64,000 nt of DNA from a virus: positions 17,559-81,558 of IMG/VR virus record IMGVR_UViG_3300033148_003055, one strand, 5' to 3'. Positions 35,881-42,652 of this stretch are shown here, piece after piece. The translations under genes were made by a program, and so were the position numbers. Each line of letters starts with the position of its first letter. Position 1 is the stretch's first letter. Below the pieces are notes generated by a model. It saw only the letters and a program-made list of their open reading frames with translations. It did not search any database and had not been told where the DNA came from.

Positions 35881-37643
35881 TTCGGCACCTCCACTTCGCG
35901 TTTGCGTTCCCAGCTGATGGTCGACAGCTCCGCCTCGATCTCGAGGGGAACGTCGAACATCGGGAAATCAATCATCAGCACACGGATGTCCTTCAGATAC
36001 CCCGGCAGGTCGCGGAGCCGGGCCCGTGGGTACTCGATCACGATCTCGTCGTGGATCGGGAGCAGGATACGGACCTCACCGCCGGTCGCCTGCTCGTTGT
36101 AGCGGTGGACCCGGTTCTGCGCCCGCTTCAGGATACCGGCCGCCGTCCCCTGGACGTAGTAGTTCGTGCCCATGTAGGCCTTGTCCCTGGGGACGTAGAG
36201 CCGGCGGCCGAAGGCGGTCGTTACGTAACCCTGCGCCTTGACGATCTCTGAGATCGTATCGCAGAGCCCGGTATACTTCGGGAACCGGGCCCGGTACGCC
36301 TGGATGCCGACCCGTGCCGCCTTGCCGGACAGGCCCAGGGTCACCGCCAGCTTCCGGTCGGTGGCTCCGTAGGGCGCGGCGAAGTTCGCGTTCTTGGCGG
36401 CGGTCCTGAGGGTCTTCCGCATGGCCTTCTTGGCGTCCTTCCATCGTCCACCGTAGACGTAGAACTCGGACCCGGCGAGGGAGTGCATGTCCCCGTCGCC
36501 GAAGTTGATGCACTTCAGCATCTCGTCGTCCCTCGACTCGTGGACGAGGATGCGAGCCTCGATGCCGGCGTAGTCGACGTGGATGTTGACGTACCCGGGG
36601 CGCGGCATGAATGCCTCGCGGGCCGGGACCGTGAACGGGTTCAGGAGCACAGAGGACTTCGCCACGTTCTGGAGGTTGGGGTTCTCACAGCTCTGCCGCG
36701 AGGTAACCGCCGCGCAGGTGTTGATCGTCGGATGGATGATCGCGTCGTCCCCAGCGAGCTCGAGGTACTTCTCCAAGGTCGTGGCCCCCTTCGAGAAGGT
36801 CCGTATCTTCATAATGAGGTCCAGGGCCGGGTGCGCCGTCTGCTCCCGGAGTTCCATGAGGACGAACTTGTTCGTCGACGCCTTTCGGTCCTTCTTGGTC
36901 AAGGCCAAGACCGGCATCCCCAGGTCCCGGTAGAGGAATTGGCGTAGCTGCGGTGGGCTGTCGATGTTGAACCGGCGTCCGGCGATGTCGAAGAGATCGT
37001 CGCGGAGCGTCTCCGTGTCTGCGCTGAGTACGCGTATCATCTTCTCGGTCCGCTTGCGGTTGACCATCAGGCCACGCTCTTCCATTCGCATCGTCGCCCA
37101 GATGAGTTCGATCTCGGTGTTGTAGCATTCCACCCACCGCGGGTCGGCCTGAATCTTTGGCCAGAAGAACAGGTACAGGAGCATCCCCCGCTCGGCATCT
37201 GCGTGCTGGTACTCGGTCATGATATGCTCGGGGACCTTGTGGTAACCTCCGCACTTGTTCGCCATCTTCTTGACCGGGGAGTCCACCTTCGGATACTCCG
37301 CCAGTTCCCAAGCGAGGTTGTCGAGCGAGTGACCGTAGTGATGGTTCTGGAGCAATTTCGACATCATGAGGGTGTCGTGAACGGTGTGCTCGTCGAGCCT
37401 GCGCCCTAGCCATTTCTCCGTCATCTGCGCGTCGAACTTGAGATTGTGGCAACACTTCGCCACCGACGTGTCGGACCAGAACTTCGCCAGCCTCTTCTTC
37501 CCCTGAAGCTGGCGGAGCGGTCGCCCGTCGAGCCGCTGGACGAATGTTTTCCCATCCTCATCGCACGTGCTGTACGAGAACATCCCGGCGCCATGATGGG
37601 CCCGGAGTCCCGTCGTCTCTGTGTCGTAAGCGATGGTCTTCAT
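35877..37643 (-). CDS. polA: DNA polymerase family A with 3'-5' exonuclease
   Basis: DTETTG, HNLKFD, PNLQN, DYAGIEAR, AKNANFAAPYG, PIHDEI. Confidence 0.95.
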   Translation of the reverse strand: MKTIAYDTETTGLRAHHGAGMFSYSTCDEDGKTFVQRLDGRPLRQLQGKKRLAKFWSDTSVAKCCHNLKFDAQMTEKWLGRRLDEHTVHDTLMMSKLLQNHHYGHSLDNLAWELAEYPKVDSPVKKMANKCGGYHKVPEHIMTEYQHADAERGMLLYLFFWPKIQADPRWVECYNTEIELIWATMRMEERGLMVNRKRTEKMIRVLSADTETLRDDLFDIAGRRFNIDSPPQLRQFLYRDLGMPVLALTKKDRKASTNKFVLMELREQTAHPALDLIMKIRTFSKGATTLEKYLELAGDDAIIHPTINTCAAVTSRQSCENPNLQNVAKSSVLLNPFTVPAREAFMPRPGYVNIHVDYAGIEARILVHESRDDEMLKCINFGDGDMHSLAGSEFYVYGGRWKDAKKAMRKTLRTAAKNANFAAPYGATDRKLAVTLGLSGKAARVGIQAYRARFPKYTGLCDTISEIVKAQGYVTTAFGRRLYVPRDKAYMGTNYYVQGTAAGILKRAQNRVHRYNEQATGGEVRILLPIHDEIVIEYPRARLRDLPGYLKDIRVLMIDFPMFDVPLEIEAELSTISWERKREVEVPK

Positions 37644-37686
37644 GTCCTGACTACGCCCCTAATGGTGGGGGCGGGGTGTCCCGCCC

Positions 37687-38056
37687 CCGGTCGCTCTGCA
37701 AGTTTGATTCTCTCAGCCCGGATGGCTCGCTCATGAAAGATGGTTCTCTCTCCGTCCGTGGCTCGCTCGTACGTTATGGTTCTCTCGTAACGTTTGGCTC
37801 GCTCTGCGTCGCTGGTTCTCTCCGGCACTTTGGCTCGCTCGAACCGCTTGGTTCTCTCACAAAGAATGGCTCGCTCGCGGACTGTGGTTCTCTCGAGGGC
37901 GGTGGCTCGCTCTGGCAACGTGGTTCGCTCATGAGCAATGGCTCGCTCCGGCAACGTGGTTCTCTCCGAAGGTCTGGCTCGCTCTTCAATTCTGGTTCCC
38001 TCGACGGTAGTGGCTCGCTCCTTTGCATTGGTTCTCTCAAGACAAATGGCTCGATC
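37687..38056 (-). repeat. TIGR-like dual-repeat guide array: 21 repeats, 20 spacers of 8 nt, 36-nt period
   Basis: Minus strand alternates GAGCGAGCCA and GAGAGAACCA every 18 nt with variable 8-mers; ends in a GC hairpin (about 37667-37688). Confidence 0.88.
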
Positions 38057-38061
38057 TCTCA

Positions 38062-38958
38062 TTACTTTGGCTCGATCACATGCACGTGGTCACCGTGGGC
38101 GATCGGGTACGGCAGCGGAACCGGAAGGCCCAACTGCTCTCGCCCCACCTGCCAGTAGTGCGAGATGAAGAGCTTGACGGCGTACCGCTTCGCCCTCGAC
38201 TGGATGTGACCCGGGGGCAGCATCGGTGTACCCTCCCCCACCTCCAGCTTGGTCAGCTTCTTCGCCCAGTCGGAGGGGGCAAGCCCTTCCATCCTGAGGG
38301 CCTTCACATCGTCACCGTTGAATCTGGCGGCGTACCACGGGTGGGCGTCGGTACTCTTGCCAACGCGGTCCGCCCCCGCGGCGGCCTGCTCGGAGTAATC
38401 GCCGACCTCGTTCTTGGCCGCCTCGTAAGCCTTCCGCTCCTGGTAGTACCGGGCGTAGGTGGCCTTGTCATTGTTCGAGACTTTGACGAAGCTCTCCCCG
38501 ATCTTCCAGCAGAGCACCTTCAGCTTGGCATTCCACGGACGCTTCTGCCCCTTCGCCCACACGGACGAGGGGTCCAACCCCGCGAACCGCCAGACCGCGC
38601 CCGCCGTCTGCGCCTTGTGGATGTCGATATGGGCCAGCAAACCGGCGGCGATCACGGGTCCGATCCCGAGCTGCGACCGCGCCCACTCGCCCAGAGGGTT
38701 CGATTTGCTGTACTTGTCGAGGGCCTTCTTCACCTCGTTCTCCAGCAGCCGGGCGTTCTCGCCGAGCCACCCCACGACCGTATGCGGCTCTTCACTCTTG
38801 GTGAGAGCCCTGACCTGATTCTCGGCCCGCTTTCGGTTGTCCTGCATCTGGTAGTAGGAATCGACCAGATACCGAACCTCCTGGGGCGACAGGGTCGTGG
38901 CTGCGTTCCGTATGTCCTTGGTCATCTTCTGGGCCGCTTCGAGTTCTACACTCATCAC
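38062..38958 (-). CDS. TasA-like protein (IS110/Nop RNA-binding domain, no nuclease domain)
   Basis: Coiled coil YYQMQDNRKRAENQ, GIGPVIAAGLLAHID, VWRFAGL, WNAKLK, RAKRYAVKLFISH; no N-terminal DEDD RuvC; abuts the array. Confidence 0.8.
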   Translation of the reverse strand: MMSVELEAAQKMTKDIRNAATTLSPQEVRYLVDSYYQMQDNRKRAENQVRALTKSEEPHTVVGWLGENARLLENEVKKALDKYSKSNPLGEWARSQLGIGPVIAAGLLAHIDIHKAQTAGAVWRFAGLDPSSVWAKGQKRPWNAKLKVLCWKIGESFVKVSNNDKATYARYYQERKAYEAAKNEVGDYSEQAAAGADRVGKSTDAHPWYAARFNGDDVKALRMEGLAPSDWAKKLTKLEVGEGTPMLPPGHIQSRAKRYAVKLFISHYWQVGREQLGLPVPLPYPIAHGDHVHVIEPK

Positions 38959-39032
38959 ACTCTCCTTTCGAAGCTACGGCTTCGGGGTGGGCGGTGTCCT
39001 TAGTCCTGCCCACCCGTCAGCCGCTCCCCTCG

Positions 39033-39341
39033 CTACGTTGATGCCCTCACGGCCCTCGACACGGGGCCGTACCATATCGTCGCGATCACCAGCAGGATGA
39101 TAGCGGGCTCCGCTACGCGGACCCAGTTCTCCATCTGCCGGTACGCCTGAATGCGGGCGTACCCGTCCCAGTCGTCCACGAGCTGGGAGACGGCTTCGGT
39201 CTGTATCTCGTCAACCTCAGCCCGCAGGATGTGCTGGCCGAGCGCCGCGACCACGGCCACGAGCGCCGTCGTCAGTAACACCCGAACCCCCAGGCCGAAC
39301 GGCGAGTCCGTCTTCGGTCTCTCCAGCTCCCCGTAGATCAC
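39033..39341 (-). CDS. Two-TM membrane protein
   Basis: Two hydrophobic segments. Confidence 0.55.
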   Translation of the reverse strand: MIYGELERPKTDSPFGLGVRVLLTTALVAVVAALGQHILRAEVDEIQTEAVSQLVDDWDGYARIQAYRQMENWVRVAEPAIILLVIATIWYGPVSRAVRAST

Positions 39342-39398
39342 TCGTCACCTCCTTCCGACCGGGGGCGTTAGACCTCGCCCCCGGCCTAGCCGCCGTGG

Positions 39399-40289
39399 CT
39401 ACTTCTTCGTCTTCTTCTTCTTCTTGGACTTCTTCTTCTTCTTGTCCTTGGCCTTGGGCTTGTCCTTGGACTTCTTCTTCGCCTTGGCCTTCTTCTTGGA
39501 CTTCGGCTCGGGCTCCGGCTCCGACAGCTTGATGCCGTGCTTCTCACAGAGCTCGACCTCTTCCTCGACCAGCTCGCTCGAGTCGTACTCGAACTTCTTG
39601 AGGCGCTTGACGAGGGACTCGACGTCGTCGTCCTCCTTGACCTTGGCCTCGAGGGTCTGGGCCAGGGCGATCAGCTCGTCCAGGTCCTCTTCCTCGTCGT
39701 CCCCGCCTTCGTCCTCGTCCTCGCCGTCCTCGTCTCCGTCGGAGTCGTCGCCGTCCTCATCGGCGTCTTCCTCTCCGTCCTCGTCCCCATCGTCGTCGTC
39801 CGCGTCCCCGTCCTCTTCGGCATCCTCATCCTCGGGCTCGCCATCGTCCTCGCCACCGACCACGGCAGCGTCCCCGTCGAGCAGGCGGGTGATGGTGATG
39901 TTGGTGAACCCGTCCTTGCTGGTCTTGACCTTGACCATGACGATCGGGTTCGCGTCGGCGATCTCTTCGATGACTTCCTCGAGGTCTGCCATCTGGTCGG
40001 GGACCTCGCGGCCGAGCTTCTCGATCCGCTGCATCGCGAACTTCCTAGCCCAGTCGCTCTCGCTCTCGAGCTGCGAGTAGTCGCGGATGTTCTCCCCGGC
40101 CATGTCGCCCTCGAGGCAAACCCATCCCCACTTGATCATGAGCTTGCTGGTGTTCTGGGACTCGACGAGCTCCGCGTCCTCAAGCTGGAGCTTGTAGATT
40201 CCGTCCTCGAACTCGGTGCCGCCCAGCGACTTGCTGGACTCCCAGTTGCCCTGCATCTTGCCAAGGCGTTTCCCGAAACTGCTACCCAT
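39399..40289 (-). CDS. ssDNA-binding-like protein (DUF669-like) with acidic linker and Lys-rich tail
   Basis: EFEDGIYKLQL...MIKWGW; downstream of Sak4-like ATPase; AGGAGG RBS. Confidence 0.65.
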   Translation of the reverse strand: MGSSFGKRLGKMQGNWESSKSLGGTEFEDGIYKLQLEDAELVESQNTSKLMIKWGWVCLEGDMAGENIRDYSQLESESDWARKFAMQRIEKLGREVPDQMADLEEVIEEIADANPIVMVKVKTSKDGFTNITITRLLDGDAAVVGGEDDGEPEDEDAEEDGDADDDDGDEDGEEDADEDGDDSDGDEDGEDEDEGGDDEEEDLDELIALAQTLEAKVKEDDDVESLVKRLKKFEYDSSELVEEEVELCEKHGIKLSEPEPEPKSKKKAKAKKKSKDKPKAKDKKKKKSKKKKKTKK

Positions 40290-40315: not shown

Positions 40316-41302
40316 TTAGAGAGCACGTCGCCCGACCTTCCGCTTCCCTCCCTCCTTGGATTTCTTCTTGGACTTCCTCCTGGGCCGACGCGCTTCTTCC
40401 TTGCCCGCCTTCCTGAAGAACTTCTTCACCACAGAGCTGGCCGTCGCCGTCGGCACCAGAGTCTTCGGGTCGAGCCCGACGTCCTCCCCGTTGAAGGCGG
40501 CCTGCAGAATCTCGAACCCTCCCTCCTTGGTGAGCGGTATGAACCGCGGCAGAGGGGCTCCGATCTCCCGGGCGCCCGCCCAGATGACCTCGTCCCCTTC
40601 GGTGATGATGACACGCTCCGTCGTCCCTGCGGACGAACGGATGTACTCGACGTAGAAGAACAGGTCGACCAGAGCCTCGACGACCCCGCGTGCCTGTCCG
40701 CTCATCGTCGGCGTGATCCGGGTGTACTCCTCGCCGCCCTGGGGTTTGATACTGACCTCCTTGGCGTGCGAGGTGAAGCAGAGACCCCGGCCCGTCTGGA
40801 GGATGCGGTGGACCGTCGTCATGAACTCGGACCTGACCGCCGCCCACCCCTTGCCGTACGCCTCTTCTGACGGGTGGTCGATGCCGAGCTTCTCCCGGCA
40901 GATGTACTCCATGCACATGTCGTACGCCCGGTCGACCGTATCGATGACGACGGTCTTGAACCGGTCCGTCTTCTCCAGGAGATCGACCGCCGCCTTGAGC
41001 AGCTTCCAGTTCTTGCACCCACCACTCTCGTGGTTGTACTCGAATATCTCAAGGCCTTTCGTCCCCGGCTCCGTCGTCAGGAACAGGGTGTCCGGGTACG
41101 ACGACAGGAACGTCGACTTCCCGATCTTCTCCCGCCCGTAGAGCAGGAGCGTGTACTGGAGCAGGTCCGTGATCGCCTCCTTCTTCTCGTCCGGCAGCTC
41201 CGGGGGCGGTGCCGGCTTCGCGAATTTACGCTTTCCTCCTTTTGACTTTGCGCTTTTGCTTGGCCGCTTTTTCTCCACCTTCTCCACTGCCATCGTCATC
41301 AT
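40316..41302 (-). CDS. Sak4-like AAA_24 ATPase
   Basis: LLYGREKIGKST, TVVIDTVD, YGKGW, FTSH. Confidence 0.85.
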   Translation of the reverse strand: MMTMAVEKVEKKRPSKSAKSKGGKRKFAKPAPPPELPDEKKEAITDLLQYTLLLYGREKIGKSTFLSSYPDTLFLTTEPGTKGLEIFEYNHESGGCKNWKLLKAAVDLLEKTDRFKTVVIDTVDRAYDMCMEYICREKLGIDHPSEEAYGKGWAAVRSEFMTTVHRILQTGRGLCFTSHAKEVSIKPQGGEEYTRITPTMSGQARGVVEALVDLFFYVEYIRSSAGTTERVIITEGDEVIWAGAREIGAPLPRFIPLTKEGGFEILQAAFNGEDVGLDPKTLVPTATASSVVKKFFRKAGKEEARRPRRKSKKKSKEGGKRKVGRRAL

Positions 41303-42230
41303 CCTCCAATTCGCGGAACAGTTTGCGCGTCTGCGCGAAGCCTACGTTGTCACCCGATGCACACATGTCCAGGAACTCGCACGACCACATCCCGACGCAC
41401 GCCTGTCGGCGACGGTAGGTCGGAAGGTCGCCCGCCACCCAGGCGGCGAAGTCCTTCAGGATCGCCTCGAGCTCGTCCTCGAAGGTCTTCACAACCACCT
41501 TCGGGAATGTCAGCTCGAACCGCTTGAAGTAATGGTCGGGACGCTCGTAGGCGTCCTTCCGAATACGGGCGATGAACCCGGTCTCGTCCTCCCCCTTCTT
41601 CTGCTTGAGCTGCGGGTTGCGGATGATGTTGTACAGCGCCCCCTTCACCGGGTCGTCCATCATCGCCTTCAGGGCCGTCAAGTAGAAGAGAGTCTGCCAG
41701 TCAAACGACAGGGACGACGTGAGGGCGTCCTCGGAGATTCTGCCCTTGGTCTTCGTCTCCAGCATCCAGACTGACTTCGCCTTCCTGAAAACCCCGTCGA
41801 TCCTGCCGCGGAGGCGGAACCCACGGAACATCACGTCGAACACCGGCTCGACCGCGATCCACTCCCGCTTGATGTCGGAGGTGTGCTCGTTCAGGTACTC
41901 CCCCAGGACGGCCCGGGCCCGGTTCGCCTCGAGCTCCATCTCCTGGGCTTGGTAGGCGTCCGAGCTGCCGACGATGTTCTTCCTCAGGGATTTGGTGATG
42001 CTCCGCTCGATCACCCGCTCCAGATTCCCGACGGCTCCCCTCCCCATCGCCTTGTATAGTTCCTCAAGTGCGGAGTGGACCATCGACCCAAACCGCATCG
42101 CCGACTTCGAGCTTGTCTTCTTCTCCCAGCCGGAGAGGGTCAAGCCCATCCTCTCCCGGCAGTCGAGGAACGCCGCCAGCATAGATTGCGTGGCGCCGTC
42201 TTCGATAGTGTACCCGGTCTTCCAAGTCAT
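41226..42230 (-). CDS. PD-(D/E)XK (Cas4/RecB-like) exonuclease
   Basis: FGSMVHSALE, LRGRID, LETKT, QTLFY, C-terminal Cys cluster. Confidence 0.85.
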   Translation of the reverse strand: MTWKTGYTIEDGATQSMLAAFLDCRERMGLTLSGWEKKTSSKSAMRFGSMVHSALEELYKAMGRGAVGNLERVIERSITKSLRKNIVGSSDAYQAQEMELEANRARAVLGEYLNEHTSDIKREWIAVEPVFDVMFRGFRLRGRIDGVFRKAKSVWMLETKTKGRISEDALTSSLSFDWQTLFYLTALKAMMDDPVKGALYNIIRNPQLKQKKGEDETGFIARIRKDAYERPDHYFKRFELTFPKVVVKTFEDELEAILKDFAAWVAGDLPTYRRRQACVGMWSCEFLDMCASGDNVGFAQTRKLFRELEDDDDGSGEGGEKAAKQKRKVKRRKA

Positions 42231-42247
42231 TCCGTCACCTCCTTCTC

Positions 42248-42652
42248 TCACCCTACCACATTTCTGGTCCGCCATCCAGCCTGAAAATATCTCGACCCCG
42301 CGCAGATGCGGACGCCCTCGCTGCCCTTATCGTACGGAACGTCCCCCTTGTTGTCTGGCCAAGGCTTGTACGGCATCAGCTTGTCTGGGTCGAACCGACC
42401 GCCGAAGTACGACGGGCGCTTCTCCCTGCCGGTCATGGCCGGGAACACGAACCGCGTCGGGAGCTGGAACGGAAGCTCGAGTTCCCACCGCTCCTCGCAC
42501 CGGGAGCAGAGGCACTTCGCGATCCCGACTGCCAGCTTGCTCTGGGAAGAGTACCCGGTCATCGTCACCTCGTAAGACCCGCACTTCGGGCACTTAGCCC
42601 GCCAGTCCAGCAGGTGGGCGACCACTATGTCCTTCGGCAGGAAACTCATCAC
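42248..42652 (-). CDS. Zn-ribbon hypothetical protein
   Basis: CPKC...CSRC. Confidence 0.55.
   Translation of the reverse strand: MMSFLPKDIVVAHLLDWRAKCPKCGSYEVTMTGYSSQSKLAVGIAKCLCSRCEERWELELPFQLPTRFVFPAMTGREKRPSYFGGRFDPDKLMPYKPWPDNKGDVPYDKGSEGVRICAGSRYFQAGWRTRNVVG

Follow-up and report, generated by a model that had tools for sequence, protein, structure and literature searches.

A phage-borne dual-repeat TIGR-TasA system with SpTIGR-type repeats and a predicted nuclease-less TasA

Organization of the locus

The window, by which we mean the whole 64-kb stretch of DNA that was analysed, belongs to an 81.6-kb uncultured phage whose DNA polymerase shares only 25–29 per cent identity with those of the closest cultured phages. 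Within the replication and recombination module of this genome lie a gene, tasA, and an array of short repeats downstream of it (Table 1). The tasA open reading frame is genuine and encodes 298 amino acids if read from GTG 38958 or 297 if read from ATG 38955; the latter codon stands one codon after the former, is preceded by AGGAG, and gives the form that is present in a public protein collection.

Table 1. Features of the tasA locus (positions are those of the window)
Feature	Coordinates	Strand	Basis or remark
tasA, predicted nuclease-less TIGR-associated protein	38062..38958	minus	homology to solved Tas chains
Dual-repeat TIGR array, ten 36-nt units	37687..38056	minus	18-nt period and comparison with the SpTIGR array
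GC-rich hairpin closing the array	37667..37690	minus	overlaps the truncated last edge repeat
Stable hairpin	38985..39015	minus	within the 74 nt that separate tasA from the 102-aa gene upstream
Extra copy of the first edge-repeat variant GATCGAGCCA	38068..38077	minus	within the last tasA codons (..IEP..), 3 nt out of phase

The array begins 5 nt past the tasA stop codon and consists of 21 ten-nt repeats that run on the minus strand from 38056 down to 37687 with a strict 18-nt period, enclosing 20 spacers that are each 8 nt long when read in phase from 38056. Every unit comprises an edge repeat (GAGCGAGCCA), spacer A (8 nt), a loop repeat (GAGAGAACCA), and spacer B (8 nt). Eleven repeats are of the edge type and ten of the loop type, three of the latter being single-base variants. 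The first edge repeat (38056–38047) is itself a variant, GATCGAGCCA, and the eleventh and last (37696–37687) is truncated, keeping 6 of its 10 bases and running into a hairpin. All 20 spacers are distinct, although spacer B of unit 3 and that of unit 4 differ at the last base only. Exact matches to GAGMGARCCA number 17 in the 64-kb window, all of them on the minus strand between 37723 and 38038, against a shuffle expectation of 0.80 (sd 0.82), and none of 100 shuffles attained 17. Tandem Repeats Finder (TRF) returned periods of 18, 36, and 72 over the array, and no second array of this kind was found elsewhere in the 81,558-bp genome. The strict period and the shuffles bear out the original prediction of 21 alternating ten-nt repeats, 20 distinct 8-nt spacers, and ten 36-nt units closed by a GC hairpin.

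The SpTIGR array served as the reference for telling edge from loop repeats, together with covariation at repeat positions 3–8 and 4–7 in relatives. Both repeats end in CCA (box C) and both would allow pairing of G3 with C8; the edge repeat has C4 and G7, the loop repeat A4 and A7. Their box D is AG, the same as in SpTIGR and not the UG of TasR. Among 42 distinct repeat pairs of relatives, 32 have exactly one class able to pair at positions 4–7 (C–G in 22, U–A in 9, and U–G in 1), and positions 3–8 pair in 30 of the 32 repeats of that pairing-capable class, a pattern consistent with the published edge and loop structures. In relatives, the nucleotide sequence of the repeats is conserved while the spacers vary.

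In CRISPR-Cas loci, identical repeats of 25–36 nt alternate with spacers about as long, and cas genes are present. Such an identity was rejected here, the repeats being 10 nt long and of two kinds, the spacers 8 nt long, and no cas gene lying among the neighbours. Rfam holds no family for the array, the sole match in 37000–39500 being a chance lncRNA at E 0.17.

The closing hairpin has a folding energy of -30.4 kcal/mol (z -3.79; fold of 37644–37704(-)), with none of 200 shuffles equally stable, and the polA start codon follows it at 37643. No U-tract follows the hairpin and the terminator scan does not call it; it is nonetheless terminator-like and may serve to end the transcript. The hairpin upstream of tasA is likewise stable (-35.4 kcal/mol, z -4.16; fold of 38959–39032(-)), and no sigma-70-like promoter was found in 37400–39500. 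Neighbouring genes are seldom shared with relatives: a homologue of any window neighbour is encoded in 4 of 80 viral loci, and stands beside tasA as in the window in one, so that tasA and its array are best counted as a self-contained cassette.

The TasA protein

TasA has a coiled-coil region at the N-terminus and an RNA-binding domain of the Nop/IS110 type, with a variable insertion of ~66 residues between residues ~183 and ~248 that has no Pfam match; the length variation among relatives is located at ~210–245. In phmmer searches of the single sequence against the PDB, the protein matched the 331-aa chain 9mty_A, which we take from its length to be TaTasR, at E 5.1e-19 and the SpTasH chain 21kl_A at E 4.1e-16. 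A profile built from 58 TasA homologues reached E 9.9e-26 for 9mty_A, 7.3e-18 for SpTasH, and 7.8e-5 for IS621, in keeping with the homology that had been anticipated for 38062–38958. Homologues of TasA at E <= 0.001 make up 5225 of 7238 candidates.

Pfam's sole match to TasA is the IS110 C-terminal domain (PF02371), below cutoff. The protein also matches phrog_4285 (E 7.5e-49), which PHROGs labels 'transposase'; the label is a family name and not a test. Identity as an IS110-family transposase was rejected, the C-terminal domain alone having been detected, below cutoff, with no DEDD domain.

Neither RuvC nor HNH has a Pfam match in TasA at E <= 10. In the 58-homologue alignment, TasA profile position 38 falls at TasR residue 124, which leaves only ~37 residues where TasR has its RuvC domain; the protein appears to have no room for a RuvC or HNH domain. 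Judged from its sequence, the phage protein is thus a Nop-domain Tas protein predicted to lack both an HNH and a RuvC nuclease, as had been proposed. Two residues near its C-terminus, Tyr284 and His291, align with Y289 and H296 of SpTasH; among the 58 homologues H291 is invariant and Y284 at least 90 per cent conserved. A Tyr/His pair is stated in published work to be typical of dual-repeat systems, and Tyr284/His291, the counterpart of the pair that matures pre-tigRNA in SpTasH, is the predicted processing pair of the phage protein.

Proposed mechanism

The homology to TasR and TasH and the dual-repeat anatomy support the earlier proposal of a TIGR-Tas system in which a TasA without a nuclease uses about ten two-spacer guides of 36 nt. 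The locus very probably represents a dual-repeat TIGR-TasA system whose ten tigRNAs would direct DNA binding without cutting. Under this mechanism tasA and the downstream array would be co-transcribed from the minus strand, and a TasA dimer would bind the repeats at their ends, CCA (box C) and AG (box D-like), while the C-terminal Tyr284/His291 loop would cut the precursor inside every edge repeat to give ten tigRNAs of 36 nt. The two spacers of a tigRNA would pair with opposite DNA strands over adjoining stretches, so that a target site would consist of the spacer A sequence and, directly after it, the reverse complement of spacer B (A+rc(B)), 16 bp in total; this tandem-spacer rule is described as established in published TIGR-Tas work. 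Bound to its site, the TasA–tigRNA complex may bend the DNA and act as a roadblock to transcription or replication, and, since TasA appears to have no nuclease domain, it would not cut.

RNA-guided DNA binding and reversible, guide-dependent transcriptional repression have been reported for MbTasA (Xu et al. 2026). The published repression is that of a stem-loop protein, not of a dual-repeat TasA.

Guide targets and alternative readings

A lead to the natural targets of such arrays comes from a cultured relative. Acidobacteriaceae bacterium KBS 96 carries a prophage TasA array whose repeats are the same as those of the phage array, and in A+rc(B) geometry one of its guides matches 16/16 and another 14/16, which none of 138 control pairings does. 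The two sites fall within the early leftward operon of a separate element, 10.2 kb long and integrated at tRNA-Glu, which carries capsid and protease genes in addition to an integrase, two Xis/AlpA-like genes, and a cI-like repressor. These matches, from a single genome, hint at conflict between mobile elements. In Halomonas sp. NO4, whose array has a sixth unit with a 7-nt spacer, the other five guides gave no exact match and four one-mismatch matches in a GC-rich genome. From the KBS 96 lead, in one relative, the targets of the present system are most likely rival mobile elements in the same host, and on that reading the phage's ten guides would serve likewise against competing phages. The wider proposal, that SpTIGR-like TasA-clade arrays are weapons against rival mobile elements in a shared host and that their natural targets can be read from complete genomes, is tentative and leans towards the doubtful.

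For the phage's own guides, the targets of two units were sought in public viral contigs. Seven contigs match the unit 7 target, with flanks that are unrelated save for one homologous pair. The unit 3 target has 90 matches, of which 80 were examined; 33 of these 80 come from one redundant phage lineage, and the flanks of the others are mostly unrelated, except in a few small sets of nearly identical contigs. These matches were read as chance, and none of the ten guides was assigned a target. A single contig of an abundant HK97-type phage lineage carries an exact match to unit 7 along with looser ones to unit 3 (one mismatch) and unit 4 (two mismatches). When this lineage was expanded to 80 loci and set against 188 control pairings, 3 of the 10 real units matched at <=1 mismatch against 1 of 188 controls, and 4 of 10 against 43 of 188 at <=2 mismatches (p ~0.07, an estimate that allows for how the lineage was picked). 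With near-matches to four of the ten guides, the lineage may be regarded as a weak candidate target. Spacer pairs of relatives gave nothing further: 1158 pairs had 0 exact matches in the phage genome (controls 0.15), and 1231 pairs had 0 in 487 kb of related loci (controls 0.4).

It might instead be supposed that the same system aims its guides at host chromosomal genes and silences host functions during infection. Host gene silencing is among the possible roles named by Xu et al. (2026), who report that a redirected TasA silences an E. coli chromosomal gene, and one KBS 96 guide does match 15/16 over the start codon of a PLP-dependent enzyme gene. However, the number of one-mismatch matches expected in KBS 96 by chance, estimated from genome size, is ~0.75 over five patterns (0.9 over six), and the only exact (16/16) match in a host genome falls in a mobile element and not in a housekeeping gene. 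We consider host genes an unlikely, though not a far-fetched, class of target.

That TasA recruits a host or phage nuclease in trans, which would cut the target DNA in the manner of TasH and TasR, seems considerably more improbable. A PD-(D/E)XK exonuclease gene does lie 2.3 kb upstream of tasA in the window, and one lies upstream of tasA in KBS 96 too, but tasA has no nuclease gene as an immediate or a conserved neighbour, a homologue of the window exonuclease occurs in 0 of 80 viral loci, and TasA RNPs are reported to show no cleavage (Xu et al. 2026).

Regulation of the phage's own genes, with the guides acting as a life-cycle timing switch, is very improbable. Xu et al. (2026) do name control of the viral life cycle among the possible roles, but the ten cognate pairs have no A+rc(B) site with <=2 mismatches in the 81,558-bp genome, and three-mismatch sites number 3.3 per cognate pair against 2.5 for 81 control pairings. 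When both geometries, both registers, and gaps of 0–2 were allowed at <=3 mismatches over the whole genome, no cognate pair rose above the 81 control pairings.

We give practically no credence to the absence of a guide array, whether as a repeat protein (one frame is open over the whole array, a 140-aa ORF of ER[AT]xxx repeats whose start overlaps the tasA stop as TAATG) or as a decayed IS110-family transposase with junk repeats (as the PHROGs label and the lone Pfam match would suggest), since 40 of 41 long arrays of relatives have stops in all three frames, the 140-aa ORF has no Pfam match, an open frame is expected ~15 per cent of the time given about 40 free codons, it is the nucleotides of the repeats that are conserved while the spacers vary, and the DEDD domain is absent. 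The arrays of relatives also uphold the earlier view of the spacers as guides rather than protein repeats.

Significance

Read as a TIGR-TasA system that binds without cutting, the locus adds one more phage-borne, predicted nuclease-free RNA-guided DNA binder to a family described in 2025–2026. Its seemingly nuclease-less TasA uses a guide scaffold practically identical to that of SpTasH, a nuclease that has been studied in depth, and given this shared scaffold and the kept RNA-processing residues, the biochemistry of SpTasH should transfer directly to the phage protein. The natural targets of TIGR-Tas systems are stated in two papers, one of them Xu et al. (2026), to be still unknown. If the lead from KBS 96 is true, its sites would be the first natural targets described for such a system; the bacterium is cultured and its sister array is apparently aimed at a second integrated element, so natural TIGR targets could be tested there at the bench.

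Comparison with known systems

By its sequence features the locus belongs to the dual-repeat TIGR-TasA systems, and its repeats are of the SpTIGR type. Arrays of the dual-repeat kind are defined in published work by two repeats of 8–12 nt that alternate, with short spacers between them, in 36-nt units beside tas, a pattern to which the phage array conforms. Systems of the TIGR-Tas kind were published in 2025; that of the phage is genuine, yet not new. The catalogue of tas loci is given as 20,096 so far, and in a family described in 2025–2026 with ~20,000 loci catalogued the present one is ordinary. The suggestion that its 8-nt spacers and near-identical repeats might mark a distinct subtype did not hold: the SpTIGR array, which has been studied by experiment, shares the layout and has nearly the same repeats, and the 10+8+10+8 arrangement is present in 69 of 80 viral relatives examined.

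The closest parallel in guide architecture is SpTIGR-TasH of Salicola phage CGphi29 (PDB 21kl, 9w03, and others), which also has 36-nt units of 10+8+10+8 nt and hence guides with 16 variable nt (2 x 8), as in the phage. The edge repeats of the two systems differ at the first base only, both loop repeats are A-rich and end in CCA, and in SpTIGR, too, tas precedes the array, whose final edge repeat is truncated and fused to a hairpin. The proteins diverge further, with an identity of only 28 per cent over 78 per cent of the query, and SpTasH (354 aa) bears an N-terminal HNH nuclease and cuts DNA, whereas the phage TasA appears to have no such domain.

FpTasA of Flavonifractor plautii is another solo Tas protein of the Nop-domain kind; it too has a dual-repeat array, and is reported to bind 36-nt RNAs running from mid-edge to mid-edge (Faure et al. 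2025; PMC12045711). Compared by description only, its guides have 18 variable nt each, corresponding to 9-nt spacers against the 8-nt spacers of the phage. TaTasR (9mty) is the best match among solved structures, its coiled-coil and Nop regions aligning over profile positions 38–301, and it shares the CCA of box C and the edge/loop pairing logic of the phage repeats. TasR differs in its N-terminal RuvC domain (residues ~1–120), its 9-nt spacers, and its UG box D, the phage repeats beginning with GAG.

The stem-loop TasA proteins MbTasA and PlTasA are described in preprints (Xu et al. 2026; Guan et al. 2026) as nuclease-less, as is predicted for the phage TasA, but they are of the stem-loop type, while the phage system is of the dual-repeat type and keeps the Tyr/His pair. 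More remote are the IS110/IS621 bridge-RNA recombinases, whose RNA-binding domain (PF02371) is distantly homologous, as the IS621 match indicates; by contrast, the phage locus lacks a DEDD/RuvC-like catalytic domain, a bridge RNA, and element ends. Finally, PAM-requiring guide systems with a single long spacer, carried on mobile elements, likewise hinder rivals by binding without cleavage, as the phage system may do, although their proteins are unrelated to TasA.

The TasA protein

The true start of tasA is likely the ATG that lies one codon inside the 298-aa ORF, behind an AGGAG, which would give a product of 297 aa, a form already present in the public protein collection. Pfam returned only an IS110-type C-terminal domain, with a score under its cutoff, and PHROGs placed the protein in phrog_4285, a family named 'transposase' (integration and excision), a label that will lead phage annotation pipelines to give TasA genes wrong names. 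Against the sequences of solved structures TasA had two matches only: the 331-aa chain 9mty_A (E 5e-19), taken to be TaTasR, a TasR with RuvC, from the residue count in a figure legend of Faure et al. (PMC12045711), and SpTasH of the characterised dual-repeat system of Salicola phage CGphi29 (E 4e-16). A profile of 58 homologues matched the same two (1e-25 and 7e-18) and also the recombinases IS621 (8e-5) and ISCro4 (1e-3). Its alignment with TasR begins at TasR residue 124, past the RuvC domain, and the ~37 residues that remain at the TasA N-terminus leave no room for a nuclease domain, which TasA is predicted to lack. Residues 183–248 (~66 aa) are without counterpart in TasR or TasH and are found in about half of close homologues. 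Maturation of pre-tigRNA in SpTasH is reportedly catalysed by Y289 and H296, and such a Tyr/His pair is described as a mark of dual-repeat systems (Xu et al.); the aligned residues of TasA are Y284 and H291, the former at least 90 per cent conserved and the latter invariant among the 58 sequences.

The array and its boundaries

The array starts five bases past the tasA stop codon and keeps a period of strictly 18 nt, with spacers of 8 nt in 20 of 20 cases. [quoted passage not shown] The repeats, spacers, ten 36-nt units and closing GC hairpin described in the original prediction are all confirmed. The degenerate repeat has 17 exact matches across the 64-kb window, all within the array (0.80 expected from shuffles, with 17 reached in 0 of 100), and a second array of this kind was not found elsewhere in the 81,558-bp genome. 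The GC hairpin, continuous with the truncated last repeat, has no U-tract downstream, and 24 nt beyond it lies the start of the DNA polymerase I gene. Another stable hairpin separates tasA from the upstream 102-aa gene, and no sigma-70-like promoter was seen in 37400–39500.

Units 3 and 4 (37903–37966) have B spacers that differ at the last base only, unit 4 has a loop repeat a single base away from the edge repeat, and TRF reports a local 18-nt sub-repeat over the same interval. This segment looks like the trace of a duplicated unit, and arrays may grow by such duplication.

A 140-aa ORF across the array (37640–38062, minus), with an ER[AT]xxx motif recurring every six residues and a start ATG overlapping the tasA stop (TAATG), was rejected as a gene. 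It has no Pfam match, and since the arrays of relatives are full of stops (in all three frames in 40 of 41 arrays with at least 20 repeats), the frame is taken to be open by chance.

Features of the locus, near-matches to its guides in the HK97-type lineage, and the second element of KBS 96
Feature	Position	Strand	Remarks
tasA ORF, 298 aa	38958 to 38062	minus	
TIGR array	38056 down to 37687	minus	21 ten-nt repeats, 20 spacers
GC hairpin			-30.4 kcal/mol, z -3.8
Hairpin upstream of tasA	38959–39032	minus	-35.4 kcal/mol, z -4.2
Module order		minus	PAPS-reductase-like, PD-(D/E)XK exonuclease, AAA_24 ATPase, acidic/lysine-rich protein, 102-aa protein, tasA + array, DNA polymerase I, methyltransferases, primase
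Near-match, unit 7	terL		0–2 mismatches
Near-match, unit 3	portal start		1–2 mismatches
Near-match, unit 6			one contig, 1 mismatch
Near-match, unit 4			2 mismatches
KBS 96 second element, 10.2 kb	G001:C1:6321951–6332130		integrated at tRNA-Glu; flanked by 26-nt direct repeats of the 3' end of tRNA-Glu

Surroundings and relatives

tasA lies within a minus-strand replication and modification module, and no parB adjoins it in the window. Upstream of it are the PD-(D/E)XK exonuclease and AAA_24 ATPase genes (40316–42275), and PD-(D/E)XK-like and AAA_24 genes are likewise found upstream of tasA in a prophage of the Acidobacteriaceae isolate KBS 96 (L183 96–2027). In a Halomonas prophage (L179 2560–2700) the array stands before tasA and directly after a gene ending ..DDDIPF, a frame end that we take to be typical of SSB. 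On the basis of these three cases only, placement of tasA in a recombination module may be recurrent.

TasA homologues at E ≤ 0.001 numbered 5225 among 7238 candidates, the closest 61 per cent identical. A relative is encoded in 96 of 107 viral stretches, and 80 were kept for comparison; the same kind of array occurs in 69 of these 80 loci. Chains lie on the tas strand in 99 of 100 cases, either upstream or downstream of the gene, and gaps between repeats are 8 nt in 1891 of 2189 instances from viral relatives. The window's neighbour genes are common to relatives in only 4 of the 80 loci, and judged by these neighbourhoods the cassette of tasA and array moves between phage backbones. Bacterial and archaeal assemblies contributed 35 loci spread over many phyla.

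Proposed mode of action and targets

By homology, the precursor would be cut within each edge repeat to give 36-nt processed guides (tigRNAs), each held by one TasA dimer, and the two spacers would base-pair with neighbouring DNA segments, each on a different strand. TasR cuts reportedly leave 8-nt 3' overhangs, so that one DNA strand must read spacer A and then the reverse complement of spacer B; we infer the same 16-bp geometry, A+rc(B), for the targets of TasA. Lacking a nuclease, such a complex would be expected to work as a roadblock, and reversible, guide-dependent repression is reported to have been demonstrated for the stem-loop MbTasA.

The window's guides have no self-targets in the phage genome, and the guides of relatives have no matches in this phage or in one another's loci. 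Exact-match scans of public viral contigs with two units gave matches mostly with unrelated flanks, the exceptions being a single redundant lineage and a handful of small groups. Near-matches to 4 of the 10 guides occur in or near the terminase and portal genes of an abundant HK97-type phage lineage (~36 kb, 60 per cent GC; IMG/VR contigs L084, L227–L306); with p ~0.07, an estimate after allowing for selection, this lineage is a weak lead as a target.

The KBS 96 prophage encodes a TasA 48 per cent identical to that of the window, and its array (L183 2986–4011) has the window's repeats in six guide units. The whole genome (6.69-Mb scaffold) was searched for the six A+rc(B) sites and held a single exact 16/16 match, at 6329962–6329977, and a single match with one mismatch, where a PLP-enzyme gene starts; the remaining four sites were without match. 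Exact matches expected by chance are ~0.003 per pattern and ~0.03 over the six KBS 96 and five Halomonas patterns (uniform base model), and in Halomonas sp. NO4, the one further isolate of the set, 5 guides were without an exact match. A second element has two HTH_17 (Xis/AlpA-like) genes transcribed divergently from an integrase and a cI-like HTH_3 gene, and the exact site lies at the 5' end of the second HTH_17 gene. This element also encodes an HK97-type capsid and prohead protease, and its capsid gene shares 71 per cent DNA identity with that of the tasA prophage. A second guide matches at 14/16, its two mismatches falling at the spacer A 5' end, in the following gene of the early operon that holds the exact site, 0.9 kb away from it; the chance of such a match given the exact one is estimated at ~0.035, and 0 of 138 control pairings matched the element at two or fewer mismatches. 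In one genome, and from a search designed after seeing the data, this element is a candidate natural TIGR target, a lead and not a result. Natural TIGR targets are described as still undetermined by Faure et al. (PMC12045711) and Xu et al., and our literature searches turned up no paper that reports them. With its two elements, KBS 96 is a cultured strain in which the aim of TIGR guides could be studied.

Comparison with known dual-repeat systems

Among 42 distinct repeat pairs taken from relatives, positions 4–7 are pairable in exactly one repeat class in 32 (C-G in 22, U-A in 9, U-G in 1), in both classes in 8 and in neither in 2, and positions 3–8 pair in 30 of the 32 repeats of the pairing class. 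Published repeats are described as having box C/D pairs in both classes, with a further covarying pair in the edge class and a loop rich in A, and the pattern that these sequences display across relatives is that published picture.

The 8-nt spacers and the two repeats had been suggested as a possible mark of a distinct subtype, but this was not borne out. In the CGphi29 record the SpTIGR array has the same 10+8+10+8 layout, with 16 variable nt in each guide (as described in Faure et al., PMC12045711); its edge repeat is identical to the window's but for the first base, its loop repeat is A-rich with a CCA end, and its last edge repeat, again truncated, runs into a hairpin. TIGR-Tas identity itself is upheld by the Tas protein homology, the dual-repeat array and the SpTIGR-like scaffold. 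By its sequence, the locus belongs to the dual-repeat TIGR-TasA kind already published, with a scaffold essentially that of SpTIGR.
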